This document shows, piece by piece, positions 1 to 37,985 of a stretch of DNA of 64,000 nucleotides. Origin of the DNA: Ophelia neglecta (taxonomy: Eukaryota). The stretch covers positions 83,452,001 through 83,516,000 of the forward strand of contig OZ260664.1 of the NCBI GenBank assembly GCA_965285935.1, given 5' to 3'. Both the position numbers and the translations under genes were made by a program. The notes under the pieces were generated by a model. It saw only the letters and a list, made by a program, of their open reading frames with translations, ran no database searches and was not told the DNA's origin. How positions within the stretch are numbered: the stretch's first letter is position 1; every line of letters begins with the position of its first letter.

Positions 1-3000
1 GCCCACCGGAGATATTACCTTGCTTTGGGGAATACAGGTTGATAACCAGATTCTCGATGGCACTGAATGCCTGATCATCAGATTCACGTCCGAGGGTGCA
101 AAGAGAGAGGAAGTGCCTTGGACCTTTTTCTAGAACAGTCTTTATGACAGTTCTTTTACCAACCGAATAAAAGCTGGAAGTGGTGTCACATCCAGTAGCA
201 GCGTGTAATCCGGGTAGTATAAGGCATAGTTCCTTTCCTAGCTTATCTGCAAGATCATGAATTGGGATAAACCTGGCATTGTTGACACCGGTTACCGTAC
301 TAGTGTGCCCCACTCTCAGCCAAACCTATTGAAAAGAGAGCTTAAAATTGATATGAATTCAAGCATTTTCAAATCAATCTACTTATATATTAAAGACATG
401 TAAGTCCATGTTATCAATTTTCCAACTTACTTTAGTATTTTCCATTTTAGCTTTGTAATGCAACAGCAACACCAGCACATCCGTATCATCACACAGAACA
501 ATGATATTTTTGTTTTCCGCAGCTGAGGTGAGGGCATGAAATACAATTCGCGTATCAGCCTCCTCATGATTGCAACTCATTTCTGGAACAATATGGCTAT
601 TCTCATTTTGCACCAACATAGTTTCTGTTCCATTCGGACGTCCGCCTGCAAGGTATATTTTCTGGTGGTCAAGAAGATGATGTGGGGCACTTGTGACTAA
701 AAACTCACACACATAGGCAGCGAGGCTTGCTTTGTTATCACACAAGGATAAAAACTTTCGCCAATTGGGTATATCTCTCCCTCCAATCACGCTGACCTTG
801 GGACTAACTGAAAAACAAAAGATGATAAAACCTAAAATATAAAATGTACAGATAATGACAAATTCAGTAGTGTATTTTTTTAATATAGTTTAAAACAGTC
901 TTTATTGAACAATAAGTGAAATCATAACCTTTTTCTCCAGCGTTTTGTCGGCGAAGTCTCTCTGCACTCTTAGTCGAGTTTGATATATCATAGCGGTCAA
1001 AAACATCTATCACGGTTTCAGCTTTTTCAAAACACCGGAGAAGATTCTTCATATAGACACCAGCCACATCCTGAAATGTTTTACACTTCGACACATCCAT
1101 GGACTGAATCACTGACATACCATCACGAATGTAAACGGTCTGATCTTTTTGGAGTGAATTGATTTCTTTTGGAACAACTATTTCTTCTTCTAAACGGTGC
1201 ATTAGTTCACTTTTGGTGGATTTTCTCATTTGTCCGTCTTCATAGAATAGAGAGAGAGGTACTGATGTGACTGGCTTTTCTAGAAGTGTGTCCAAAGTGA
1301 GTTTTCGTTTTTGGGTAATCACAAGTGCACGCCTGAAGAGAAGTTCTGGTGCAATGGAAAGAGGTGTTTTCATCCCCTTTAGAGATACTTGGTTTTTCCT
1401 TCGCATATCTTCAAATGTTTTGAGTGTAGATCTCTTCACTGGCTCATAAAACCCTTTAGTTTGTGCAAATGACATACGTGTGTTGACAAATTCTGACGCC
1501 AGACTTTTGCCTGTTTCTGTCGCGCTAATCAAAGCCTCTTCGATGTCTGGTGTAGAATGGACCCCACTAGCTATATTTATAAGGCAGTTTGGCAAAACTT
1601 CAATGTCAAATGGGTTTGTCATACAATCGAGCAAATGTTGCTTCATTTTCCTGACATCTTCTTCATCTCGTTTCATAGCCCCTGGTTGAGATTGCGAATG
1701 GGAATCGTCTTTTTCTGTTTTCAACCCACTGCGTCCTCTCATTACCTCATAGTATGCTCCTAAAATATGCCTGGTCAGAGTCCATCTCACAAGGGCCGGT
1801 TGTTTCATAGTCAATCCTACGATCCCACTCTTTCCCTTCGCATCACGTATTACAGTTTTTTCGGTACCCATATCACTCCAAATACCATTGAATGATCCTG
1901 CCTTTTGTCGAATGCTGAACTGGCCATCAACCAATGCTTCTTTAGCCATCTGGGGGATGTCTTTCATGTCCAAGAGATATGTGGGAAGCCACCGAGAATA
2001 GTTTTGTTTACTACAAACAAAAAAGTATGGAAGCATTGCCCTTGTAGTGGATAAGTGCAATTTCCAATCTCCCTCTCGATCTGCCCTAATATTGGACAGC
2101 ATGATGCCTAAAGATTCAATAAGCATATACCAGAACTTGAATGTAGGATGTTGGGATCCAATCTTTACAAAATCATCCAGAGCAGGGATGAATGAGTTAC
2201 TTAGAAGATTTTCGAGACATTCTGTGTCTTTGCCTAAACTTCCAACTTCTACTTCTTTCCGTGCAGCTACCAATTGAACCATGATACTAGTGTCAATTTG
2301 ATGTGTTTCAAGAAAAGTATCAATTAGGCATCCTGCAAGAACTTCATATGTCAAGGTGAGACCGCGCACCGCTCTGTTGAATTGTTTCCCTTTAAGCATC
2401 TGGTAGGCCGTTGCCTCTGCATATGTTCCCGAATCAACAAGTAAATCATGGAGGCCAGCGTTACCCCACATTTTACCAAGGCATGCAATATATGTGGACA
2501 GGGTATGAAAGCCACCAAGGCGAAGAATGTGATCAGGGAACTCGTCTGGTTTCCCCCATTTTACTTGCTGTGCTACAGCGTAGAGTTGTTGGTCCATAGT
2601 CTGCACTCCAAAGGGCTGTCCTAGCTTTTGGACCATCCGTTTGTGTTTCACCATTGTTGTGTAAACAGTTTGGAAATCAGACGGCTTGGCCTGAATGATT
2701 GGTGCATATGCCGTTCTTGTAATGGCCTTCACATCGTTTGATCGCTTGCAATTATATCCGGCCCAAAGCGGTACTGGCTGGGGTGCAGCTTGTCTATTTC
2801 CTTCCACGGATGATGCCCAAGATGATCAGTTCAAGCAGCGCATCAAGACCCAGGCAAGATCTTTGGTGGCAAGACTAACGTTCTATGAAAGATGAAAAAA
2901 AATATGTAGAGTAAACTTAAGCTGTGTTCATTAGATTAGTTTTTATTTTAAAAGGGATTTGAATATGATCTAATGAACAATTTGATATTCTACCCGAGTT

Positions 3001-5190
3001 AATTCATGTAATGCCTACCTCAAGCTTGAGTGAGTCCAGGTAGGCCATCGGGTTCGGTGTCACTGGTGGGCACGGTCTCTGTGTAGGTTTCTGATAAGCC
3101 ATGCATTCCGTGTCCAGTTTGACCATGTCAACAACATCAAGACTTCTATTCTTAGACTTTGGGATGGGCCTTTCTGGTGAATGATGGCTTCCTTCCTGAA
3201 ATATGACTCTGGCCATGGAGTGGAAGGTGTCCTTGCCATTTATTGTTTCAGCGTTGATATCGATGTTATCATCTCCCTCTTGTATTAATGCTCCTCCAGC
3301 TGTGATAGGCGTGATCTCGGACGGTACGTATGTTGTGTTGTGACTTTGCTTGATTTGTTCATCAGCAGCTGATGTAAGAAATTGGCGGACTGTATCATAT
3401 GAAGTTGTAAATCCATGGGAGTGCAGAGTATCTATAATGTCTCTTCTGCCATTTTGATAGTGCAATTGTAATGCTAGGCCTAATTGGCATGGAGTGGTAA
3501 TATTTCTGCTTGAATGGATTATTGCCTCAGAAATAGCTAAGTACTTTACTTGCTTGTCTGGTTTTGAAACAAAATGGTCGCATCCGCTTAAAAACGCCTC
3601 TTTGTCCAAAATCCACTGCACTGTGGTCTTCAGCAAATCTGGAACAAATTTTTCCGAGGATGTAATGGACATTTCGTCTGTAGTTGGAAAGGTACTCCTG
3701 TCGTCTATTGAGTCCATAGCTTGACGAATGTACCCGATGGCCTGATGTAGAATTTTGAGCTTGTGTGTTTCATCCTTTGTTTCTGTAGTATCAGCATTGT
3801 TTTCCTTGACATAATCATTTTCAGTGAGCTCAAATTGTTGAATTGATTGTAATATTTTTCCCATCTTTAAACTGCTACTGCACACAACACTGGAAATGCC
3901 TGGTCCATGTCTACTGATTATTTTGATGGTGTTTCCAAAATGAATCTCAAGCCGTTCTTTTAGTCTTTGTGATGAGTAAGCTGTTGGGTCGCCCAACTGT
4001 GATCTATACATTGCAAGTAAGTCTGTGAGACGGTAAACCTTTCCCTTATTCATTAATTCCTCTGTGATTGTATCTACCAGTCTATAGATCGAAGAAGCTC
4101 TGACGTCAGCTGCGCGTCAGAGCGTGGCAACGACCTGACGACGGGCTTCTGTGGGTATACACAGTTTTTTCAAGATGGCGGTGATAAGCGTTTCGTGTAT
4201 AGCGGCGTTCTTTGCCGGCGAAGAAAAACTGATTAAGAAAAGGGAAAATGCGTACAAGTCTAAGCGATTAGAAAGATTTACCTATTTTCTCATAGACTTA
4301 CATGTATTAAGCTTTTAATATTAAATAATGTCTCGCAGCTTGTCCTCACAGGTAGGAAACCGAATAAATCGGCAGATCTCTCGCTGCCTTTGGTGGTTGC
4401 AGAAGGGCGGAAAACACTGCACAAATGGTATAATCACCTTAATCAGAGCTTTCGGTTTCCACAAATGTAGAAATCAGTCAGAATCACGCATAAATACTGG
4501 ACTAAAACACAAAATCATCGGAGCTGATATTACGACCGTGTACTTTAACATGTACCCAACATGGCGGCAATGATTGTTTGTCTCCAGCGGGAGCAGTAAC
4601 TAACAATATCACGTGATAAGTGACGTCATCCTTCTTCAATCTATTGAAGGCTTCGTCGTAATCTGAAGTTTGGAATGTTTTCTTAAGAGCAGCCTGGATG
4701 TTTCGTCTGCTTAAGTATGAAGCTTTACAATTATTGTGGTATTTGGCATGGTGTTTTGTCAGATCCTCTTGATAAAGGTTGTCCATCAGTTTGAAGTCAT
4801 TTTCTGGATTGTGGCTTTGAACTGTTGCTCTGTTTTTTTTTGTGTCACCGTGTGCATATACTTATTCCCGCCTTGATACAGTTTTTGACAAAATATGCAT
4901 TTTTCCCAATCAATAGGAGTCACCAAGGCCCTCGTTGTCGCCCGGTCTACAATTTGATTGTCACTATTTCCCTTTGGCAGGTTTTGTACACTTGTATACG
5001 TTTGGTAGCAACTTCGATGGTATGGAATACTGTCAACATTTTCTGGGTTTACATTTTCCTTCTGTATTAATCGCTGCCGTAAAGGTGAGTCGTTTCGCGT
5101 TGCCGAGACATCAAATAATCTTTTTCTTCCTCTGTTGCCCGCAAATCGTATTTCCTCGTTTTGATTAGGTGTTGTGCAAATAATACACAT
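1..5190 (-). pseudogene. AcademX transposase/XPG-nuclease gene, disrupted; exons approx 5190-3019 (interrupted by 4086-4642), 2882-929, 807-431, 325-<1
   Basis: N-terminal CxxC/YHxxC modules, DDNID, TMDQQLY, LRLGGFH, DVFDRY, HEEADTR, DDTDV and an H3TH-like HAATGCDTTSSFYSVGK motif in the last visible exon. Frame-preserving GT-AG introns at 3018-2883, 928-808 and 430-326. Lesions: a frameshift near 4800, a TE insertion, and an in-frame TGA at 2828-2826. Confidence 0.85.
4086..4642. mobile_element. Internally deleted ISL2EU (PHIS group) non-autonomous element
   Basis: Imperfect TIRs AGATCGAAGAAG..TGACGTCA / AGATTGAAGAAG..TGACGTCA with AT duplication at 4084-85 and 4643-44. Removing it restores the Academ frame (DEAFNR-LVDTITEELMNK). 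It holds convergent ORF stubs: + 4175 MAVISVSCIAAFFAGEEKLIKKRENAYKS and - 4431 THAP-like PFVQCFPPFCNHQRQREICRFIRFPT. Confidence 0.75.
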
Positions 5191-6221
5191 TGAGCTACAT
5201 TGCCCGTTTCTTCAGTGGAATTGGAGTATCCATCTGCGATAAAGAAATTTGCTAGAACCATGCAGTGTCAAATTATTTCACACCAGTGTATAAAAGTATA
5301 GGTCCCCTAACTGAGAAAGCCCCCGAAGGATGGTGTAGGGCAGTTAACAATATTAATGGTAGGGATGTGTAGCTGGAAACTCAAACTATGGGGTCATTCT
5401 TAGAGCAATGCCTCTGTAAAACCGACTCTTTCTTAGTGTCTTATTATTGCATTAAAAGTTGCAAAATGGCCTGTGTTAATATGTGTGGCGGTAAGGTGAT
5501 CCATTTTTGCTCAAATATTACCGCCAGCTGACAATCAGTGAATGTAGCTTCCCATCAACAAAGCGGATTTATAGATAGTTAGCCTTGAAACATATATTCA
5601 TTCCAGTGGATCATACATGTAGGCCTATGGTTCCGGATAGCCGTGCCCCCCACCCCCACCCCCAAGGAAAGAAGTCGCCAACTTAAAGCCTTGTCATATC
5701 AATAACTCGGGAAGTGATAAGCAAATATTTTAAGACCGGAGGATGTATGAAACCAAGACTTACCTAATGTATTCTTGATATATTATAAAACATGTATACT
5801 ATCCAAGTAAAAAGTCTGAACGAATACTGTAACTTAAATGAAATTTGATGGTATTGCTGTTGAGAATTGGTGAATACCAAATATTCGAAAAGGAATGCGG
5901 GGTATAATATATAACCACCCATTTGAGATTTGGACAACTACAAGCCCACCCTTGCGGCATAACGCTATCTACTTGTGTAGAATGGAAGCTTATTGGAAGG
6001 TTATGTACATGTACCGAGTGCTTAACTCATTCGCTGCTGACTTGTTTGACAGGCTCAGGGGCCTTCAGTGCTGAATTAATTTAAGGAATTTTCAACAGAA
6101 ATGTATAATTATAGATTGTGGGCAATGCACAAGTTACCTTTGAAAAATATGTTGAAAGCTATATATCAATAGATAGCCAAGACACACAGCTACCCTTTGC
6201 AGTAGGTAACAGGTGAAAAAT

Positions 6222-7528: not shown

Positions 7529-8457
7529 CTAAATTGGTAGCTCAGCCTCAAGGCGATCATAAAAGGCCAGGTAGTTTTGCTGTGTGTGGTAAATTTCAAA
7601 GCAAGGTACCACACACAGCGAAACTTTACAGACCTTGCAACGGTATATGGATTCTTTCCGTCGCAAGGGTCTGCCCGCTCCATTTCCCCTCTTGGAAGAA
7701 CTGCAGCACTTACAACGTAGTTGTGCATGCAGCTTCTTACCAGATGGGGGGTTGTGCTCCATCCAGTGGCCAGCTGAATGTGTCAACCTTAATATAGGCA
7801 CATTCATTGAAGGACGACCTACTTTGACGCCCTCAAGGTCAGCACGTTCCAGGAGAGCGTCAATCAGTGCCTGTATGTATTTGAGCTGACTCAAAGGAGC
7901 AGCAACCTGTTTCTCATAACAGAAGGATAAAACTCATTGGAAAAAATAGGATCTTGAGACCAATAGCTGCCAAAGGTTGGACGTTCGTCCAATCCCATGG
8001 CAAAAACAAGTGCAAGAAAACCAAGGAGCTCGCCAGAAGTGGTGTCCCTCCACTTCTGGACGCGACTGAACTGAGGAAAATCATAAGCAGCAAGAACCTG
8101 GCCAGCGTACTGGTTGGTTTCTCTGGCCAGTAACTCAAAGAAATCATCATCCAAAAATAACTGAAAAAAATCAAACACATCAAAATCATCACAATTGATC
8201 AAAACTTGCCCGGCCTGGTGGCCAGTAAACGGTGGAATGTTTGGCTGCTGGTCCACCGAAACCCAGCCATCAATTTCACCATCATCATCGTCATCGTCAT
8301 CTTCTTGGCTGCTATCTCCATCTTCATTTTCATCATCACTCCGTTCAGCCTCTTCTTCGTCTTCACTGCCAGGGTCTAAGGTCACTTCCTCCACCTCATC
8401 ATCCCATCCCAAGCGTTGAGGGGCCCTAGCTATCCGTCGTGGTCTTGCAGCTGCCAT
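7529..8457 (-). pseudogene. piggyBac transposase lacking the catalytic core: acidic N-terminus/start of DDE_Tnp_1_7 joined out of frame to the C-terminal Cys-rich domain
   Basis: ORF 8457-7891 has FFQLF..RETNQYA..W..T..EL..F..L..MG..YWS..MRNR. ORF 7894-7529 has CKCC..CKVC..LC..PCFEIYH. The DDD region is missing at a junction near 7903. Confidence 0.88.
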
Positions 8458-22975: not shown

Positions 22976-23125
22976 AGAATCTCAGGGTTTCCAGGAGCAA
23001 TGTACACAAACATATAGTCTATATAGAATCTCATGGTTTACGGCATTGAAGTACACAGACATATAGACTGTTTAGAATCTCACGGTTTACGGCAGTAATG
23101 TACACAGACATATAGACTGTTTAGA
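22976..23125. repeat. About 49-bp minisatellite, 3 copies
   Basis: AGAATCTCA.GGTTT...GTACACAGACATATAGACTGTTT repeated. Confidence 0.8.
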
Positions 23126-25217
23126 GACAGCATGTGGCACAATTCTTGTCACTGTACCTTGCCAAGTGGTATATATATATATAGACTCCCTTTTAGCCAT
23201 AAAAAATAAAGTTAATTTCCTTTATTTAAGTCCAAAACCTGGGGTGCAGTTCAGGAAGGTTGCAGAATTAAGTTTTTGACTTAAGTCAGTAAATAACAAT
23301 GGGTTTTGTACACATTCTTGTCTTAGAGCTGAGTCTGAGACAAGAATGTGTGCAAAAACTATTGGCAAAAACTTTAGTCTTCAGCCTTCCAGAACTCAAC
23401 CCCTGAATAATTGACAGAAGTGAAGCCTGTGCAGGTCTCTCTCTATTAGTCCATAAGGAAGCTTCCAAATCTATTGTCTCAGTATCACCTGCACACATGT
23501 AACCTGGGACCAGATACATGTAGGTATAAGGTGATACTCTGTAAGAAGGACGGGAGAAAAGGCCACAGTTTCTTCTATTCTACGTGCATAAAATCCCCAA
23601 ATTTAAGGTGCAAAGGAAATTTATATCAGGGTATATAGGCAAAGGCAAAGGTACAAAGGTGTTAGCAAGCTTAAGACTGCAGGATTATAGTGATGTGGCT
23701 GTGGAGGACTTCATGGGGACAACTTTGGAGATGAAAAGTTCTCACAAAAAAAACCCCAAATACTGAATTATAAAGTAGATGGTTCTGAGGAGGACTTGGT
23801 GTACAGTTTTTCTAGTTACATGGAAAGACGCAGTCGTGAAGTCTTTCTCGTGGGAATTTCCAGATCTCTGTCATTTCACCTGCTCATTTAACCGGTCTAT
23901 AGAATCAGCAGCCCTTCAGTTTTCTCTAAAAAAGGATGCAAATTAATATGTCTACTTAAAGTGTATCCATTGATAATGTGTGTCTTTCCATGCAGACTTC
24001 CTCCTTTGTCTTCTGCCATATAATGGCCCAAAGGCAATGAAAATGAATTCACAAATAAATTGACATTTGTCTGGCATTGAAATTGATTAAATTACTTTAC
24101 TTAAAAAAGCATAAGAACTGGAAAACACATCATGTACCTTTAGTATATATGTATATTCATGTAGTCGTAGGCACACTTAAATGGAGCGGTGTTCTCTTCC
24201 TGAATAGCCCGTATTAATTGTCACAAACATGAAGAGCTTGACAGTAGTTACTGCCCCAAGTCATGGCATATTACTGCAGATTTCAAATTCCTTTTATTGT
24301 TGTGGACACATGATGACAAGATGATATTCACAGATGATAAGGACAGCTAGTTGAGGTTCCATCTGCACTGCATGGGACTGTCCTTCCAGACAATTCAATC
24401 CCCTTTACGCACAGAGCTAATAACAACCCAGACAGATATTATGACATTCTAAGGACAGATGGCTGGAAGACGTAATACTATGTCAAAAGAACCTAAATTT
24501 TTATTATGTGAGCAAGGGAGTAAATGTAATTTCTGGTCTCCATTGCCTCTCATTTACCTTGCATGCTGCCGATAATTGAACTACTTAATATTTCTCATTT
24601 AGAAACCAAAATACTGGTACACACCTCACCCTAATGTGAAAGGGAATAATATGGGTTCATATTGATGTATAATGTCACATGTGCCGGTTATCACAAATAT
24701 TAAAGACCTTTCATTCATCTTAAAGACAAATGCATCTCCACTAAAAATCCTAAAATTTTTAGAACAAAAAGTTGAAACATCTGCTGTATCCCAGGCCAAA
24801 CTTTTTTCTTCTAAATAAGTTGCAGTGCAACAAACCATTATAATTAACTAACAATTTCAGTCAAAGGGTGACAGTCAGATGTGAAAAACACTCAAAAATG
24901 TATTAAGAGAGAAAAGGGTTTGGCCACCACAGCGTGAAGAACAGTTTTCCGATGCTTTATGAAGTTCGGGTGATGAAAGTTCTTACATCATGAATCTATG
25001 ATGTCAATTCTTGGTTGAAAATGATTGATCATTATATGTTTTTGTCAGAACAGACTGCACCTAAGTAGATGAAAGAAACTTTGTGACGAGGTTTGACTTG
25101 CATTTGTAATTTAACAATTATATGTTAAGTAGTTTTTAATGTCATATTAATTCTATTGCCCTGGCTGATTTACGTTGGCCTCAGGGAAAAGACCCTCCTT
25201 TTTGTCCAGAGACATCC

Positions 25218-26204
25218 CAGGGTTCATTTTTTACAGAAAAGGCAGGGGGACATTTGTCCCCAAGGGGCTGATCTTGAGGGAACAAATAACTATTCAGGGG
25301 GACAATATTACACACTGTTATTTAACCTAATCTTTAATATGTAATATACAAAGCAGTAAGGTAAGCAGCTAAGACCAGAAGTATATTTTAATATTAATAA
25401 TATAGGCCTATAAGTTTATACCTACTATAGGTATAAACTTATAGGCCTATACATCTTGATTATCCGTGATCGATAATAGCTTCATATCTATTTTGTCCAG
25501 TGGTAAACTATGCATCTTTCATAATTTGACATATTTCTGGAGAGGCATTTTAGTACATTACAAGGCATAGGCGAATTTTCCTTAGTATTTTATATAGGGC
25601 CTATGTTGCCGGATCAGGGAATTAAGTCAACCTCAACTTGTGACATCGCTTGACCCCGGCGCTCGAAATGTCAAGAAATGTGTCTTTGCCGGCGTTAACA
25701 TTGTACCAACCTGCTTCTGAAATGCGGCCAAGATGGTATTTTGCCTCATTATTTTCTTTGGCGGCATTTTGTTTTGATCTGCCCGACACTGCTGAACGCC
25801 AAAGATCGCCGACCGCTCAGTTACCGCGACTTGACAATGTGCTCATTTCCGCGCGTTTCGTTCCCTCGTGTGGAGTCAGCCTCTAGCTGTAATGTAGTAG
25901 TATAATACCCAGGGCTACGACCAGCAACGCACCGCAACGAACGGTCCTCACACTGCCTTGTAACGAACTACTGACCTCGATTCAGTACGGGAATAATGTT
26001 ATGTCAGTTGAACTCATCGTGTCGGACGTACCTCGTTACACTGGCGATGTAGTAAAACCAACAAATAGCGCAGATAAGGCTCCGCGATCGGCTGACAGCG
26101 CCATTTCGGCCCGCGCCATTTCGGCGCAAAGCCAGGTAATTTGGGGGGACATTGAGTGGAAAAATGCGCCCAGGGCGCACGGCGCGTCCAAAAAATGCAC
26201 CCTG
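25218..26204 (-). mobile_element. hAT5-type non-autonomous element with 5-bp TSD
   Basis: TIR CAGGGTTCATTTTTT / CAGGGTGCATTTTTT. CATCC duplicated at 25213-17 and 26205-09. CpG-rich promoter-like region. Short - strand exon 25767-25711 (MPPKKIMRQNTILAAFQKQ) followed by a GT donor, resembling a transposase N-terminus. Confidence 0.8.
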
Positions 26205-26209
26205 CATCC

Positions 26210-29200
26210 ACTTGAGGGTTTGGGATGTCTCCCAGAGGAGTGGCATATCTCCTCCCTGAGGGAGCCCCCTCCACAGACAGCCTCTTGAGGGTTTGGGATG
26301 TCTCCCAGAGGTGTGGCATGTCTCCTCCCCGAGGGAGCCCCCTCCACAGACAGCTACTTGAGGGCTTGGGATGTCTCCCAGAGGAGTGGCATATCTCCTC
26401 CCTGAGGGAGCCCCCTCCACAGACAGCCTCTTGAGGGTTTGGGATGTCTCCCAGAGGTGTGGCATGTCTCCTCCCGGAGGGAGCCCCCTCCACAGACAGC
26501 TACTTGAGGGTTTGGGATGTCTCCCAGAGGTGTAGCATGTCTCCTCCCTGAGGGAGCCCCCTCCACAGACAGCCTCTTGAGGGTTTGGGATGTCTCCCAG
26601 AGGTGTGGCATGTCTCCTCCCGGAGGGAGCCCCCTCCACAGACAGCTACTTGAGGGCTTGGGATGTCTCCCAGAGGTGTGGCATGTCTCCTCCCTGAGGG
26701 AGCCCCCTCCACAGACAGCTACTTGAGGGTTTGGGATGCCTCCCAGAGGTGTGGCATGTCTCTTTCCTGAGGGATCCCCCTCCACAGACAGCCTCTTGAG
26801 GGCTTGGGATGTCTCCGTGAGGTGTGGCATGTCTCCTCCCTTAGGGAGCCCCCTCCACAGACAGCCTCTTGAGGGCTTGGGATGTCTCCCAGAGGTGTGG
26901 CATGTCTCCTCCCGGAGGGAGCCCCCTCCACAGACAGCTACTTGAGGGTTTGGGATGTCTCCCAGAGGTGTGGCATATCTCCTCCCTGAGGGAGCCCCCT
27001 CCACAGACAGCTACTTGAGGGTTTGGGATGTCTCCCAGGGGTGTGGCATGTCTCCTTCCTGAGGGAGCCCCCTCCACAGACAGCCTCTTGAGGGCTTGGG
27101 ATGTTTCCCAGAGGTGTGGCATGTCTCCTCCCGGAGGGAGCCCCCTCCACAGACAGCTACTTGAGGGTTTGGGATGTCTCCTAGAGGTGTGGCATGTCTC
27201 CTCCCTGAGGGAGCCCCCTCCACAGACAGCTACTTGAGGGTTTGGGATGTCTCCCAGAGGTGTGGCATGTCTCCTCCCTGAGGGAGCCCCCTCCACGGAC
27301 AGCTACTTGAGGGCTTGGGATGTCTCCCAGAGGTGTGGCATGTCTCCTTCCTGAGGGAGCCCCCTCCACAGACAGCCTCTTGAGGGCTTGGGATGTCTCC
27401 CAGAGGTGTGGCATGTCTCCTCCCTGAGGGAGCCCCCTCCACAGACAGCTACTTGAGGGTTTGGGATGTCTCCCAGAGGAGTGGCATGTCTCCTCCCTGA
27501 GGGAGCCCCCTCCACAGACAGCTACTTGAGGGTTTGGGATGTCTCCCAGAGGTGTGGCATGTCTCCTCCCTGAGGGAGCCCCCTCCACAGACAGCTACTT
27601 GAGGGTTTGGGATGTCTCCCAGAGGTGTGGCATGTCTCCTCCCTGAGGGAGCCCCCTCCACAGACAGCTACTTGAGGGTTTGGGATGTCTCCCAGAGGTG
27701 TGGCATATCTCCTCCCGGAGGGAGCCCCCTCCACAGACAGCCTCTTGAGGGTTTGGGATGCCTCCCAGAGGAGTGGCATGTCTCCTCCCGGAGGGAGCCC
27801 CCTCCACAGACAGCCTCTTGAGGGCTTGGGATGCCTCCCAGAGGAGTGGCATGTCTCATCCCGGAGGGAGCCCCCTCCACAGACAGCTACTTGAGGGTTT
27901 GGGATGTATCCCAGAGGTGTGGCATGTCTCCTCTCTGAGGGAGCCCCCTCCACAGACAGCCTCTTGAGGGCTTGCGATGCCTCCCAGAGGAGTGGCATGT
28001 CTCCTCCCGGAGGGAGCCCCCTCCACAGACAGCTACTTGAGGGCTTGCGATGCCTCCCAGAGGTGTGGCATGTCTCCTCCCGGAGGGAGCCCCCTCCACA
28101 GACAGCTACTTGAGGGTTTGGGATGTCTCCCAGAGGTGTGGCATGTCTCCTTCCTGAGGGAGCCCCCTCCACAGACAGCCTCTTGAGGGCTTGGGATGTC
28201 TCCCAGAGGTGTGGCATGTCTCCTCCCTGAGGGAGCCCCCTCCACAGACAGCTACTTGAGGGTTTGGGATGTCTCCCAGAGGAGTGGCATGTCTCCTCCC
28301 TGAGGGAGCCCCCTCCACAGACAGCTACTTGAGGGTTTGGGATGTCTCCCAGAGGTGTGGCATGTCTCCTCCCTGAGGGAGCCCCCTCCACAGACAGCTA
28401 CTTGAGGGTTTGGGATGTCTCCCAGAGGTGTGGCATGTCTCCTCCCTGAGGGAGCCCCCTCCACAGACAGCTACTTGAGGGTTTGGGATGTCTCCCAGAG
28501 GTGTGGCATATCTCCTCCCGGAGGGAGCCCCCTCCACAGACAGCCTCTTGAGGGTTTGGGATGCCTCCCAGAGGAGTGGCATGTCTCCTCCCGGAGGGAG
28601 CCCCCTCCACAGACAGCCTCTTGAGGGCTTGGGATGCCTCCCAGAGGAGTGGCATGTCTCATCCCGGAGGGAGCCCCCTCCACAGACAGCTACTTGAGGG
28701 TTTGGGATGTATCCCAGAGGTGTGGCATGTCTCCTCTCTGAGGGAGCCCCCTCCACAGACAGCCTCTTGAGGGCTTGCGATGCCTCCCAGAGGAGTGGCA
28801 TGTCTCCTCCCGGAGGGAGCCCCCTCCACAGACAGCTACTTGAGGGCTTGCGATGCCTCCCAGAGGTGTGGCATGTCTCCTCCCGGAGGGAGCCCCCTCC
28901 ACAGACAGCTACTTGAGGGTTTGGGATGTCTCCCAGAGGTGTGGCATGTCTCCTCCCTGAGGGAGCCCCCTCCACAGACAGCTACTTGAGGGTTTGGGAT
29001 GTCTCCCAGAGGTGTGGCATGTCTCCTCCCTGAGGGAGCCCCCTCCACAGACAGCTACTTGAGGGCTTGGGATGTCTCCCAGAGGTGTGGCATGTCTCCT
29101 CCCTGAGGGAGCCCCCTCCACAGACAGCTACTTGAGGGTTTGGGATGTCTCCCAGAGGTGTGGCATGTCTCCTCCCTGAGGGAGCCCCCTCCACAGACAG

Positions 29201-30853
29201 CTACTTGAGGGCTTGGGATGTCTCCCAGAGAAGTGGCATGTCTCCTCCCTGAGGGAGCCCCCTCCACAGACAGCTACTTGAGGGCTTGCGATGCCTCCCA
29301 GAGGAGTGGCATGTCTCCCCCCTGAGGGAGCCCCCTCCACAGACAGCTACTTGAGGGTTTGGGATGTCTCCCAGAGGTGTGGCATGTCTCCTCCCTGAGG
29401 GAGCCCCCTCCACAGACAGCTACTTGAGGGTTTGGGATGTCTCCCAGAGGTGTGGCATGTCTCCTCCCGGAGGGAGCCCCCTCCACAGACAGCCTCTTGA
29501 GGGCTTGGGATGTCTCCCAGAGGTGTGGCATGTCTCCTCCCTGAGGGAGCCCCCTCCACAGACAGCTACTTGAGGGTTTGGGATGTCTCCCAGAGGAGTG
29601 GCATGTCTCCTCCCTGAGGGAGCCCCCTCCACAGACAGCTACTTGAGGGTTTGGGATGCCTCCCAGAGGTGTGGCATGTCTCCTTCCTGAGGGAGCCTCC
29701 TCCACAGACAGCCTCTTGAGGGCTTGGGATGTCTCCCAGAGGTGTGGCATATCTCCTCCCGGAGGGAGCCCCCTCCACAGACAGCCTCTTGAGGGCTTGG
29801 GATGTCTCCCAGAGGTGTGGCATGTCTCCTCCCTGAGGGAGCCCCCTCCACAGACAGCTACTTGAGGGTTTGGGATGTCTCCCAGAGGTGTGGCATGTCT
29901 CCTCCCTGAGGGAGCCCCCTCCACAGACAGCCTCTTGAGGGCTTGGGATGTCTCCCAGAGGTGTGGCATGTCTCCTCCCTGAGGGAGCCCCCTCCACAGA
30001 CAGCCTCTTGAGCGCTTGGGATGTCTCCCAGAGGTGTGGCATATCTCCTCCCTGAGGGAGGCCCCTCCACAGACAGCCTCTTGAGGGCTTCGGATGCCTC
30101 CCAGAGGAGTGGCATGTCTCCTCCCTGAGGGAGCCCCCTCCACAGTCAGCTACTTGAGGGTTTAAGATGTCTCCCAGAAGTGTGGCATGTCTCCTCCCTG
30201 AGGGAGCCCCCTCCACAGACAGCCTCTTGAGGGTTTGGGATGTCTCCCAGAGGTGTGGCATGTCTCCTCCCGGAGGGAGCCCCCTCCACAGACAGCCTCT
30301 TGAGGGCTTGGGATGTCTCCCAGAGGTGTGGCATATCTCCTCCCTGAGGGAGCCCCCTCCACAGACAGCCTCTTGAGGGCTTGGGATGCCTCCCAGAGGT
30401 GTGGCATGTCTCCTCCCTGAGGGAGCCCCCTCCACAGACAGCCTCTTGAGGGCTTGGGATACCTCCCAGAGGTGTGGCATGTCTCCTCCCTGAGGGAGCC
30501 CCCTCCACAGACAGCTACTTGAGGGTTTGGGATGTCTCCCAGAGGTGTGGCATGTCTCCTCCCTGAGGGAGCCCCCTCCACAGACAGCTACTTGAGGGTT
30601 TGGGATGTCTCCCAGAGGTGTGGCATGTCTCCTCCCTGAGGGAGCCCCCTCCACAGACAGCCTCTTGACGGCTTGGGATGTCTCCCAGAGGAGTGGCATG
30701 TCTCCTCCCGGAGGGAGCCCCCTCCACAGACAGCTACTTGAGGGCTTGGGATGTCTCCCAGAGGAGTGGCATGTCTCCTCCCGGAGGGAGCACCCTCCAC
30801 AGACAGCTACTTGAGGGCTTGGGATGCCTCCCAGAGGTGTGGCATGTCTCCTC
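26210..30853. repeat. 73-bp GC-rich satellite array (about 63-64 monomers)
   Basis: Monomer ACTTGAGGGTTTGGGATGTCTCCCAGAGGTGTGGCATGTCTCCTCCCTGAGGGAGCCCCCTCCACAGACAGCT. Strict 73-bp period with no visible indels. Confidence 0.98.
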
Positions 30854-33419
30854 ACATTACTCAATGACAACTTTTTTGTATCAAGTAATATGGTGAAATA
30901 TGATTTACAAAATTTATTCAAGAAATTTCTCAGTTTTCAGTATTCTATCAAAACCTATAGATATTAATGTTAGGCTGTTTTCACTTTTTGCTTCCCTTTA
31001 TTATCAATCATTTTAAGCATAGAATTGACATCCCAAACGGATGATGTAAGTGCTTTCATCTCTCAAACATCATAACGCACCGGAAAACTATTCTTTTCGC
31101 CGTATTGGCCAAACCCTTTTTTTCCTTAATGGGTTTTTGAGTGTCTTTTTTACGTTTCACTCTTCATTCTTCTGCCGAAATAACTAATTGTTTAGAAGTT
31201 TGTTGCATCGCAAATTATGTTGAAATAGAAGTGTTTGGCCTGGGGTACAGCAGATGTTTTTATTATTTTTTTTGTTTAACAAGTTTCTAATCATTTTATA
31301 CAGCCAGCATCCCATCAGTTTAACCAAACTGGGATGAGGCAAAATAAAAAGATCTATTGCCAATCAGCAGCTCTTCAAGGGAAGATACTGTACCTATAAC
31401 ATTGTTAAACTAGATTCAAAGAAATCTACATGATATATACTAGTATACAGATCCTGTACATTGTACATGTATAGTACAGTTTAATTCTAGAGATTGGTGC
31501 CGGTAGACTTGCTCTGAGTAGATAATCCTTAGTAGAAGAACTTAGACGCATGTTGAATTTTGCGGGCATAGCTCCAAAACACAAAAAAAAACTGCATTTA
31601 TATTTTTGTGCATCCACCCATTAAGATGAAGATAAATCTAGTGGTAGGTTCCTTTTTGTTGGCCATTGAATTTGATCACATCTGCTGATCTGGGCAGCAC
31701 AGAGCCTATGATGTTCATATGTGTTCTTCCACCTGCTCTGGGTTCTGATATTATCATTGCTTTCAATGTTATGACATTACCTGTATTATCATTAATCTGG
31801 GACCCCTTACAAGGTGAAGGTGTATCAAGTTGGGTACTTTTACTACATCAATCCTTTCATATACAAAGCTGCACTGCCCTCATTATATTCTTGTTGATAT
31901 TTTTTAAGGCACATATAGAGATAATGTTTTGTCAAGGACTATAACTGTACCCACTACAAACTGCAGTAAGCAAAGACTTAAATATTAAAATGTGCATCAC
32001 AACTAGCTGTGAATCATTTATACAAACGTGATATGGATATGGATTGTGAACACAACATAGTGTCCACATTGAGCGTATTACCTCCTTTTGATCTGCAGAC
32101 ACTGTGTCATTGATCATACTGTGAGTTATTCCTCCCATATGGTGTCTTTACTGTGTACAAAGTATCACTGGTATTCTGTACATCAATCAGCAACACCATC
32201 AGGTAAAAGGTGATATCCAAACATTAGACTGAAAGAAGCTGTAAAGGTCTGATTTAAGGGAGATGACTTAAACATGTCCCTGAGAATATATTCAAACCAC
32301 TAGCAGCATACTGAATAGTTGACATGGGGAGAAGGGAGCATCATTGACATTGAAAGTGGTAAAAGTAAAAGTGCCAGGGAGGGGGGGGGGGGGGGTCACT
32401 GCCATATACATGTATGTTTGATTTTGGAGGTTCTGCAGGAAAGCCCCCCACCTATAACAACGTAAAAATCTGCTACCTTTTGGTATACCTTCAGCACAAA
32501 GCTGCTCTGTATCACGGGTTAAGCTCACAATTGTCATATTGAGGTCAAACCAAGTCTTATCAAAAAAGATTTCAGGCCAAACTCTCTCCCTCTTAACAGA
32601 CATTTAACATATCCTCCTGAGGTGCATAAAATTTGCCTACAGAAAAGTCAGTTATAATGGTTGTTTTTTCATGGAAAATATCAGTAACATTGGGTATTGT
32701 TTTATCACCCCCAAATCAGCTCCCTTTTGCACCATTGGAGGGTGCATGGTACCTCCCCACCAATTTCATAAGGGGATTCCTCCTCCCCCTCCCCTGGTAA
32801 AAATTGTCTAGAAACATTTTGTTTTGTCTTCATCAGAGTTTGTTAAGACTTTTACCCTATTGTTATTTCTATTCATCTGTGTTAGAGGATCTCACACTGT
32901 CCAGTCTCATGGTTTTGTGAGGTGAGATTTCTTTACAGTTGAACACTCCTCTTGTGTTGAATATATTGTCATCTAGTCAGAGGAGATGAGAGCTATCAGA
33001 TGACAGCTGGGAGGGCTGGTTCTGCACATAGCACTCAAGCTATTCATATTTTAAATTGCTAAAGTTCATGTTTCAATGTTCATGTAATTTGTTGAACTTG
33101 GATAATGGCCATCTAGAATACAACTGATGACTCCAAATAAAAGGTGGCACCCGACTCATTTATTTGGAAGAATGCTTGATAAATTATGGCCTAAAATGTA
33201 AGATCTTATTTAAATATTTGTTAGAGCCACACCATGTTCTGCCTTTTATTGCTAAATGTGAAATTACAGTGTAGTTTATTCTTGTGAACTCTGCACAAGA
33301 TACACAGCCATTATTTGAACGTCAGGTGAGAAAAGGGCGAGAGGTTTAGTAACCAAAGATTTCTGTTCTGATAACTATGGTTGCTGTTATGTTCATTCCT
33401 TGCCAGTGTGTTAAATCTC

Positions 33420-33879: not shown

Positions 33880-34685
33880 CACTGACAACAGCAAGACTCT
33901 AGGACTGATAACATCAAGTCTCTAAACAAGTCTTTAGGACTGACAGCAGCAAGTCCTTAGGACTGATAACAGCAAGTCTCTAGGACTGACAACAGCAAGT
34001 CTCTAGGACTGACAACAGCAAGTCTCTAGGACTGATAACAGCAAGTCTCTAGGACTGACAACAGCAAGTCTCTAGGACTGGTAACTGCAAGTCTCTAGGA
34101 CTGATAACAGCAAGTCTCTAGGACTGACATCAGCAAGTCTATGGGACTGAAAACAGCAAGTCTATGGAACTGATAACAGCAAGTCTCTAGGACTGACAAC
34201 AGCAAGTCTATGGGACTGAAAACAGCAAGTCTCTAGGACTGACTACAGCAAGTCTATGGAACTGATAACAGCAAGTCTCTAGGACTGACAACAGCAAGTC
34301 TATGGAACTGATAACAGCAAGTCTCTAAGCAAGTCTCTAGGACTGACAACAGCAAGTCTCTAGGGCTGGTAACAGCAAGTCTCTAGGACTGATAACAGCA
34401 AGTCTATGCGACTGACAACAGCAGGGGCCTGTTGCATAAATCTTGTTTATCGTCTGAACGCGCTAAGTTTGAGGGTTAACTCTTTCTAGTCCGTTTATTG
34501 GGTTGCATAAACCTAGGTTAAAAGTTAACCCGTTTAATCACAGGTTGAAACTATGGCAATCCAATAAACACGACAGCAGTTAACGAGTTATAATAAACGA
34601 GGTAAATATTTTAACCCGTTCAAATCTAAACAAGATTTATGCCCCAGGTCTCTAGGGCTGATAAGAGCAAGTCTCTAGGACTGAT
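33880..34685. repeat. 23-bp minisatellite interrupted by a MITE
   Basis: ACTGAYAACAGCAAGTCTCTAGG, more than 20 copies. Confidence 0.95.
34425..34644. mobile_element. PIF/Harbinger-group MITE with CAG TSD
   Basis: GGGCCTGTTGCATAAATCTTGTTTA ... TAAACAAGATTTATGCCC (right TIR partly deleted), with CAG on both sides. Inserted inside a minisatellite unit. Confidence 0.75.
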
Positions 34686-34984
34686 CAAAACTAGTCACAG
34701 TGAATGATGAGAATTAGTCAAAATGACAGATAACACAAATTTTGCCTACATTTGTCCTGTCAAACAATGGCTGGTGGCCTGCCGGGTTTGTCGAAAATAG
34801 CACAACTTAATGTTATTATGACTTCAATACATGTATATCCATATTTTTTGGGGTCTGAAGATGGGTCACTTTTTGGCATTTTGGTCACCAATGTATTGTG
34901 TTTGAATTACACCATACATAGGGTATTGCATGATCCAGTTTGAATGAGAGGTCACCTTTATATATATATATGTATATACACTTG

Positions 34985-35162: not shown

Positions 35163-36363
35163 GCAAATCCACAACTGGCTCATATGTAGATCATCAGAGA
35201 CAAGGAACCTTGTGTGAAGAAAACAATGTATTCTTAAACCAATTTATGTGTCAAAAGTCAAACTAGTACCATTTCCATTTTGATGCATAAAATCCCCCAA
35301 AGCATATAAAAGTAAGCAATAGTGGTAACATTTTGCCAGATAAATTAGGGCATGGGCAATTATAACAGAGAAGACGGTGCAAGTAGGAGTTTATAAGGTG
35401 ATACCACTAGCATAGCATACGGTATTGATAGGAGTTGATGAGGTGGTACCAGTAACTTTAGAGTGTATATGAGTGTGTATCTGTACAAAGGTGGCTTTCT
35501 GTATCAAGGGAAGGAGTCATTTAAAGATCCCCACAAGGCAAGAAGCTTAATAGGTAATGATGTAAAGAGCCTGCAGCACAGGTCCTTGTGCCACTTGTAA
35601 ATTATAATTACCAATTAGCAGTGCTGCCCTGCCTGACTAGTTATATTTCCAGGTAAAGCCTACCGTACTCTCTCGAAAACTAACCGCACTCCAATATAAA
35701 CCGCGTCTGCATTTTTTGCTTTTAATCCCACATTTTTCTCCAAATGAAACTAAATTCCTAAAATCCCCAAATTAAACCGCGCCAAATTCTGGTAGTACCG
35801 TGCTAACATTGAAAACGTCATCAAGTGCGACAATCGGGGCGGGAAGCAGCCAATGAGATCGCATTGTGCAGGTTTGTGTAAGCTTACTAATCCTAACACT
35901 CTTATCTCTGACTAAAAACACAATTGGCAGACTGTTGGTTTACAATTCCCAATTAATACGCAATCAAACTAGGCGTGAACGCAGACAGGGCTGGTCATCA
36001 AAGGTGTGAGTTTGCCACGAAGCAGCAACTGCATTCACACTACGGCGCCAATGGCCCGCCATGTTGTGGATTCATCTACCACGATCACGGACTGACCACA
36101 CAAAAAGCCGACAGTTAGTCTACACTGGCTAATCCTGTATCCATAAATAGTACAAAATAAACACACATGAATAGATGTCGAGTATCTAAATTGCTTTTGT
36201 AACTTTACAAAAACATGGGTGGCTTTGCAATTACTTTTGAGGACAACGTATAAATGGCAGCTCGGTTTTCAACTGATCACTCACCTCTTGAGATTCGCTA
36301 TATGCATATCACGACTTTTCACTGCGCTACACATCGAAGATATACCACAATCCATGAAGCAAG

Positions 36364-37985
36364 ATGCCGCCAAGAAGATCGTACACAGTCAGCCAAAAGC
36401 TGAAAGTGATTGCTCGGTTCGCCGAGTTGAAGAATGCTCGGGCTACGGCCCGTGAATTTGGATTGTCAGATCGCCAAGTCCGAGACTGGGTTAAGTCGTC
36501 GGAAAAACTGCAAGAACAGCCAAGGAATGCAAAACAGCTGAAGGGAGCCGGCCGAAAAGTCCGTGACCAAGGCCTTGAGGACACCCTGGCCGAATGGGTC
36601 GATCTTCAACGCAAGGAGGGGCATGCCGTCTCTGGGCCACTCCTGAAGATTCAAGCTAAGAAGGAAGCTACCGCTCGGGGTCTTACCGACTTCAAGGCCT
36701 CAGAGGGCTGGCTAGGGAAGTTCAAGGCCCGTCAATCCCTTACCACCCGGCGAAGAACTTCCCTAGCTCAACGGTTACCCAAGGACCACGAGGAAAAGGT
36801 GCGTTTTAAAATCTTAAGATAAAATACATGTAATAATTAGATGGACTACCAAACTCCCCTATTTTAAGTAGGCTATATCATCCAGATCATTCTAATTTAT
36901 TTGGTTACGAAACTAAATTACCATCATGATAATATATTTACTTAATATTACACGGATCATCGGGATAGTTTTATTACCCAACCATATTGCCAATGTCGAC
37001 CACTATAAATTACCATCATGATAATATATTTACTTAATATTACACGGATCATTGGGATAGTTTTATTACCCAACCATATTGCCAATGTCGACCACTCTTA
37101 CCAGCAAAAAAAATTAAATTTATATTTTTATTTTTACAGATCCTCAGCTTCCATAGATTTGTGCTCAAAATGCGCGGTCGGCATCGGTATGCTTTGTCGC
37201 AAATCTACAATATGGATGAGACGCCGATGAAGTTCGACAGTCCGGCCACCCAAACCCTCAACAAGAAGGGAGAGAAGACAATACAAGTGAGAACAACCGG
37301 GGCCGACAAGAAGGGATTCACAGCTGTGCTGACTTGCACAGCGGATGGCGGGAAAGTTGTTCCGCATGTAATCTTTAAAGGCGTCCGAAAGCTGGGAGAT
37401 TCTTGCCGTCAACCTGGCGTAGTAGCCAAGGTCCAAGCAAAAGGGTGGATGGACGAGGATGGCTGCCTTGCTTGGATACGTTCCGTATTTCCCCTGGGAT
37501 CCAACGAAAGAAAACTTCTAGTCTGGGACAGTTTCCGTGGCCACTTGACGGACTCTGTCAAGAACGAGCTGACTCGTCGTTTAGTGGATACAGCGGTGAT
37601 ACCAGGTGGCCTCACTTCGATACTCCAGCCATTGGACGTTGCCCTCAACAAACCATTCAAGGATAAGATCAAAGCTATGTGGCAGCAATGGATGGTTGAG
37701 GGCAGCCACACTTACACACCAGCCGGACACCAGCGCTCCCCAACAAAGGAGGTTATTATAGGATGGGTGAAAGACGCTTGGGCTGCCATCAGCAGTGAAA
37801 CCATCCAAAAGTCGTTCCTGAAGACTGGCATCAGTAACGCATTGGATGGTACACAAGAAGATGCTTTGTGGGAAGCTATTGACACTGACAATGATTCTGA
37901 CAGCAGTGATTTTGAGCCGGCTGCGTTGTCCGACGACGATGGCGAGGAATTTTGGGGTTTCGGGCCAGAGGACTTAGTGAAATGA
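36364..37985 (+). CDS. pogo transposase, 426 aa, join(36364..36798,37140..37985): Brinker-like DBD + CENP-B HTH + DDE_1
   Basis: RRSYTVSQKLKVI, FKASEGWLGKFKAR, NMDETP, VWDSFRGH, IPGGLTSILQPLDV with 35 residues between D2 and D3. Phase-0 GT-AG intron 36799-37139 gives DHEEK|ILSFHRFV. Confidence 0.92.
36914..37095. repeat. 92-bp tandem duplication in the transposase intron
   Basis: TAAATTACCATCATG...GTCGACCACT twice, one mismatch seen. Confidence 0.92.

Follow-up and report, generated by a model that had tools for sequence, protein, structure and literature searches.

We analyzed a 64,000-nucleotide stretch of Ophelia neglecta DNA (assembly GCA_965285935.1, contig OZ260664.1, positions 83,452,001 to 83,516,000 of the forward strand), here called the window, in whose own numbering positions are given. 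It contains a GC-rich 73-bp tandem array that abuts a DNA transposon, both lying between two diverged inverted arms. An initial annotation, made from the sequence letters, took this arrangement for a satellite "caught being born" at the center of a fold-back transposon, possibly in connection with transposition of the insert. We consider it probable that the array is a single-locus minisatellite that grew after a local hairpin-bearing segment of 84 bp had been duplicated in tandem and that the transposon inserted later at its left edge, without a causal part in its origin. The features of the locus are as follows.

24742..25032, plus strand: left arm of an old inverted pair; 221 of 288 alignment columns identical to the right arm, Kimura two-parameter distance (K2P) 0.28
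25033..25178, no strand: left inner spacer, 146 bp, without inverted homology to the right spacer
25179..25217, plus strand: decayed remnant of the likely ancestral unit, a direct copy of monomer phases 46-73
25213..25217, plus strand: left target-site copy CATCC
25218..26204, plus strand: 987-bp non-autonomous DNA transposon, hAT5/hAT6-like, with CAGGG...CCCTG ends; absent from the second allele
25401..25451, no strand: perfect 24-bp inverted repeat inside the transposon, present in several other copies too
26205..26209, plus strand: right target-site copy CATCC
26210..30853, plus strand: 73-bp GC-rich single-locus minisatellite, 63 units plus 45 bp
27378..28910, plus strand: recent block duplication in the array; units 17-26 equal units 28-37 exactly (lag of 11 units, 803 bp)
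30854..30999, no strand: right inner spacer, 146 bp
31000..31298, minus strand: right arm of the inverted pair, 77% identical to the left arm

The array and its transposon-free allele

Tandem Repeats Finder (TRF) gave a period of 73, 63.6 copies, and 94% matches across 26210-30853. The array starts, as first described, at the first base after the target duplication (26210, directly after the right CATCC at 26205-26209). Contrary to the initial annotation, it is not fully homogeneous: its 63 full units represent 41 types, with a mean difference of 5.6% between pairs and 3.8% from the consensus. Genome searches covered the 762-Mb assembly. A DNA search with the monomer returned one candidate region, the present locus; a first monomer pattern gave 63 matches at the locus and 1 elsewhere (control, 1), and a second, from the other half of the unit, gave 64 at the locus and 0 elsewhere. 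A candidate second locus on contig C9 was rejected, being merely a 21-bp match. The monomer is a single-locus sequence, arrayed at the present site only. Satellite families are recognized by several loci or very long arrays, and here there is one 4.6-kb array; tandem units of tens of base pairs, a single locus, and interspersed variants are the marks of a single-locus minisatellite, and the array has all three. Tandem arrays are common: they numbered 13 in a base-rate sample of 40 spaced 10-kb segments (400 kb) and made up 7.8% of its bases.

Folding of two units revealed no unusual structure in the monomer (z = -0.3). A coding role was rejected, as it is the repeat itself that gives rise to the long open frames on the array's minus strand. 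An Rfam scan of 23000-33000 gave 4 matches, all far under their gathering scores, and no RNA dataset was listed as holding the site, which has no bearing on expression.

Three public runs (X1, X2, and X3), all from one sample, hold the site. In each of the three runs, one contig connects 25212 with 26205 and leaves out 992 bases (987 plus 5); it carries a single CATCC and continues 29 bases into the first monomer; in X1 this empty-site contig is 926 bases long (892 plus 34), with nothing between the two parts and no excision footprint. Its depth was 24.5 in X3 (expected, 24.1 if the insertion is heterozygous and 35.4 if the site is homozygous empty) and 20.6 in X2 (expected, 18.9 and 24.9, respectively), and depth thus fits a heterozygous insertion in both testable runs.

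From contig coordinates, the empty allele very probably carries an array of its own. A 103-base array contig with 12 differences was present in 3 of 3 runs and fits 0 of 62 same-phase assembled windows (4 to 11 differences, one with 13); no unitig of the assembled array has this length, and the clipped last base of the contig lies at phase 31, a position where every one of the 64 assembled units has G. An X1 contig spanning the right array junction (30810-31227) with 25 differences represents the second allele with the same junction. Four unaligned bases precede 30810 in this contig, which argues for an array rather than one unit, because a single-unit allele would match 30809 and merge with the left contig. 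In all three runs the left empty-site contig ends at phase 29, where a break would be expected if the first units of the two alleles diverged from phase 30 onward. Some contigs contain unit variants that are not in the assembly, and these may represent differences between minisatellite alleles; second-allele copy number is not readable from contigs, and summed contig depth over the array was rejected as an invalid measure of it.

The two alleles differ by 3.1% in the left flank and 6.0% in the right (30810-31315, including 12 differences in 133 bp at 30944-31076), and the left spacer of the second allele has indels at 25038 and 25098-25147. Ordered by divergence, the array units (5.6%) and the alleles (3.1% and 6.0%) stand above the transposon, which is 1.4-2% diverged from its nearest family copies. 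The transposon is therefore probably later than the array, given that an empty allele exists and that the order of divergence agrees.

These data bear on a link between the transposon and the origin of the array, as first suggested. Had the array arisen or expanded in the repair of a transposon-made break, the empty allele would come from later precise excision or conversion; such an origin would suit an array that starts at the first base after the target-site duplication (TSD), a flush position that is improbable for any one family. We hold it to be highly improbable: the empty site is clean in all three runs, the empty allele shows signs of carrying a separate array, the array is more diverged than the transposon, and the other family loci fetched lack an array (see below). 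Neither arrays across the genome nor arms with TSDs of their own were found, either of which had been named as fatal to the suggestion; it fails on the empty allele instead.

The flanking remnant and the transposon family

The segment left of the transposon, 25179-25217, had been described as a degenerate inverted copy of part of the monomer. It does match the inverted monomer at 24 of 39 positions without gaps, but taken by itself this score lies at the upper end of what chance gives (24 is reached at 4 places in the non-array window), and the segment is also a direct copy. Of 2040 background windows, 6 reach its gapped score, as do 11 of 2000 shuffles. The direct alignment, anchored at the array start, exceeds 1590 of 1590 background flanks, and 10 of the final 13 nucleotides match the monomer. 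The two readings are compatible, since the unit is in part complementary to itself: CCTNAGG can pair with itself, and of the 9 positions at which phases 65-73 face phases 14-22, 6 pair. Remnant and unit differ by 4 substitutions over 28 aligned bases and by a further 11 bases of gaps; the first duplication is therefore old, and the view that the locus was caught at its birth is not supported.

Removal of the insert leaves the hairpin GAGACATCC-13 nt-GGATGTCTC, in agreement with the initial annotation. The last 9 bases of the remnant and phases 14-22 form a perfect 9/9 stem, compared with 6/9 in the amplified units; a flush perfect 9-bp stem was present at 21 of 58,801 background positions. The perfect stem may be ancestral or may have been perfected later, possibly by template switching. 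The remnant begins at phase 46 and the array stops at phase 45, so that the phase closes; the remnant and the first 45 array bases together form a segment of 84 bp, and the tract as a whole contains an integral number of units. The monomer is likely derived from this local hairpin-bearing segment.

The insert at 25218-26204 ends in CAGGGTTCATTTTTT and CAGGGTGCATTTTTT (family end sequence, CAGGGTTCATTTTT), with terminal inverted repeats that match at 14 of 15 bases. Its family is dispersed, with 69 matches in the 40 candidates scored out of 72 and with 26 left ends (control, 0); it combines this dispersal with the short terminal inverted repeats expected of hAT5. Of 30 family loci fetched, 21 had both ends and 20 were distinct, L047 and L052 being one locus. 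Target duplications in these 20 were exactly 5 bp at 7 loci (the present one and 6 others) and exactly 6 bp at 9, with none exact at 4; L029 and L032, both with 6 bp, have common flanks, which leaves eight 6-bp events. No transposase was recognized in the lists of open reading frames (ORFs) of 12 longer or divergent loci, of which 4 ORFs were scanned against Pfam, and no genome-wide transposase search was made. The insert had been called a hAT5 element, and this is a likely label, but the 9 family loci with 6 bp and the lack of a recognized transposase leave it less than firm; we take CAGGG ends to be hAT-like. A literature search by title and start of abstract found no mixed 5- and 6-bp duplications within one family; Repbase Reports lay outside this search, and no claim of absence is made.

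The 73-bp array was found at 0 of 29 other fetched family loci, three of which had two weak monomer matches each. Rebuilt empty sites showed no clear preference of the transposon for hairpins (z below -2 at 3 of 17 sites, the present site included).

Three further observations concern the family. L029 (C12:71.74 Mb) and L032 (C1:149.37 Mb) are identical in flanks and duplication, indicating one insertion copied with its surroundings. L042-L045, L085, and L086 (C5:1.0-2.2 Mb) have the same rearranged ends and flanks within about 1.2 Mb, and they likely lie in a larger repeated unit. Inside the family copy L087, positions 1470-5654 hold a presumably DIRS-like retrotransposon whose frames match reverse transcriptase, RNase H, and tyrosine recombinase (weak Pfam scores).

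The inverted arms and neighboring features

The long diverged inverted arms of the initial annotation are real (their match was reached by 0 of 500 shuffles) but span only 24742-25032 and 31000-31298. Extensions toward the outer limits once assigned to them, 24724 and 31620, are at chance level (118/500 and 246/500 shuffles, respectively), as is a 10-bp inverted word at 24714/31621, rejected as an outer limit. Nor do the arms continue inward as one fold-back. On the arm diagonal the two spacers are 34% identical (mean, 29.5%; standard deviation, 4.8), their global score was reached by 698 of 1000 shuffles, and inverted homology is also absent when second-allele letters are used (score of 22; shuffle mean, 16.6; standard deviation, 9.3). 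All ORFs of the arms are shorter than 75 amino acids (aa). Directed conversion between the arms was rejected, since changes in the second allele agree with the opposite arm at a rate similar to that of the assembled letters (left arm, 5 versus 9; right arm, 7 versus 5, with 2 matching neither; counts limited to the displayed second-allele difference rows aligned within the arms).

Two DNA searches and three motif searches (3 mismatches allowed) found no third arm copy; each of the three motifs, common to both arms, gave 2 of 2 hits here only. The chance that one motif search catches a 12-15%-diverged copy is about 0.4-0.65, and the blank does not prove rarity. Going by these searches, a sizeable arm family of the arms' own age appears unlikely, and the arms may be a lone relic or possibly the last survivor of a much older family.

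Had the arms been the long terminal repeats of a fold-back or MITE (miniature inverted-repeat transposable element) family that carries and disperses the monomer, as Tetris or miDNA4 does, the inverted arms of about 290 bp and 77% identity seen here around a tandem array would be expected. A TTAA-targeting element would leave TTAA at its ends, and TTAA does lie near both outer ends (24720-24723 and 31321-31324). TTAA is, however, common in AT-rich DNA, and no significant terminal match extends beyond the arms. Such families are also dispersed in many copies, and here two arms only were found, though copies of much greater age could escape such searches. Neither the arms nor the monomer turned up at any locus but the present one; dispersal by an element family, which the initial annotation had offered as an alternative, is very unlikely.

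The 84-bp segment lies midway between the arms, with 146 bp on each side in the assembly, and once the array is collapsed the hairpin axis is about 4 bp from the arm axis. The proposal that the monomer came from the axis of a palindromic element therefore stands in part: a local hairpin segment midway between the arms is its likely source, but a fold-back transposon is unsupported. The array could have been born at the center of the inverted duplication if young, near-identical arms had folded back, the loop had broken, and repair had produced a tandem duplication, the transposon still being late. The centered position, the near-coincidence of axes, and a remnant-unit divergence (4/28 plus gaps) of the same order as that between the arms (23%) would fit. 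We nevertheless regard this as unlikely, because the spacers lack inverted homology, which leaves their equal length with no evident cause, because the left spacer of the other allele has indels, and because local inverted repeats of at least 150 bp occurred in 11 of the 40 base-rate samples. It is similarly doubtful that the locus is a midpoint-born minisatellite in an old single-copy inverted duplication, with the progenitor hairpin kept alongside and the surviving stem later hit by the transposon; the unit would then have kept 6 of 9 stem pairs as if expansion needed a weaker hairpin.

Other repeats lie elsewhere in the window. On the minus strand, 383-5211 has frames of 653 and 370 aa without a Pfam match and resembles a large DNA transposon, which we guess to be Academ-like, and 7529-8457 holds a broken piggyBac-like transposase (PF13843 and a weak PF13842 match). 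A Pogo/Tigger-like transposase (HTH_Tnp_Tc5, DDE_1) at 36358-37985 on the plus strand is interrupted near a 92-bp tandem duplication at 36914-37096. A second minisatellite, with a 23-bp unit and about 87% matches, occupies 33881-34696 (detached piece, 34645-34696), and a 163-bp fold-back at 23241-23403, with nested arms of 38 bp and 31 bp, is probably a small MITE. Diverged repeat pairs are found at 41988-42227/51884-52121, 16875-17055/46226-46698, and 34985-35165/43915-44123.

Proposed history and comparison with known systems

In the history that we favor, a local minisatellite followed by a transposon, an old local inverted duplication would first have produced the two arms. Subsequently, 25179-25217 together with phases 1-45 would have undergone head-to-tail duplication, for which replication slippage or unequal exchange aided by the hairpin is the probable cause, and the founding copy would have lost 11 bp. 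Slippage, unequal crossing-over, and conversion may then have enlarged and partly homogenized the units on both alleles, before the transposon entered the remnant on one allele and CATCC was duplicated.

Several points weigh against this history. The insertion lies 5 bp from the array edge, and the chance that a 25-copy family inserts within 5-10 bp of one is about 2-3%; within 50 bp it is 15%. These figures use a density of 26 array edges in 400 kb and concern a single family among many. The unanchored direct match of the remnant is not significant (254/2040), and the anchor was picked after the alignment had been seen. The second array was not seen whole, short-read contigs are possibly mosaic, the extra units could be ones collapsed by the assembly, and the sequenced sample is possibly the source of that assembly. 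The right array end is without the short direct repeat that slippage would call for. The setting itself is not common, since none of the 8 sampled arrays that had both flanks was enclosed by inverted arms, and the two spacers are exactly 146 bp each without explanation; their equal length is probably due to chance. As a whole, the locus reflects mostly ordinary repeat evolution and shows no new mechanism.

The locus is of use in that the progenitor of a minisatellite is still readable beside its array and that the order of events is set by an empty allele. It also cautions against crediting a transposon with every tandem array that lies flush with its target duplication. Mixed 5- and 6-bp duplications would matter for transposon classification if the family transposase is found, because hAT5 and hAT6 are defined by duplication lengths.

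According to excerpts from two papers (PMC12730594, PMC9004415), the defining lengths are 5 bp for hAT5 and 6 bp for hAT6. The present family resembles both in its short terminal inverted repeats and its 5- or 6-bp duplications; unlike either as so defined, it yields both lengths and straddles the groups, and no transposase has been recognized that would place it.

The closest parallel for the array is the slippage origin of minisatellites proposed by Haber and Louis in 1998, as far as it is described in excerpts from a review (PMC6947457). In that model, as here, a local segment is duplicated head to tail and then amplified by slippage, conversion, or unequal crossing-over, and the block duplication and interspersed variants of the present array are in keeping with it. 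The model requires direct repeats of 5-10 bp flanking the unit. CCT(C/G)AGGG is found at the left end and in the units, whereas the repeat is wanting at the right end, where the array stops one base before CCT(C/G)AGGG. A further difference from the minisatellites described there is that the progenitor segment carries a hairpin. In molluscs, array flanks have been reported to contain fragments of the monomer, and junctions to lie in palindromes (PMC5139131, in part).

Satellites carried by mobile elements are alike in outline. Tetris, with the TIR-220 satellite of Drosophila virilis, has inverted arms with kilobase-size tandem arrays, but in the account available (PMC4079207, excerpts) it is dispersed and its repeats lie inside the terminal repeats, whereas the present array lies between the arms at one locus. 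The miDNA4 and Xstir satellites, from Xenopus MITEs, have a tandem unit in few or many copies between inverted ends; as presented in parts of PMC12628747, they belong to multi-copy MITE families that occur at many loci, both as monomers and as arrays, in contrast to the present sequence, for which no second locus was found. A dispersed carrier is the defining trait of such fold-back and MITE satellites; without one, the present locus behaves as a locus-specific minisatellite with a later insertion polymorphism.

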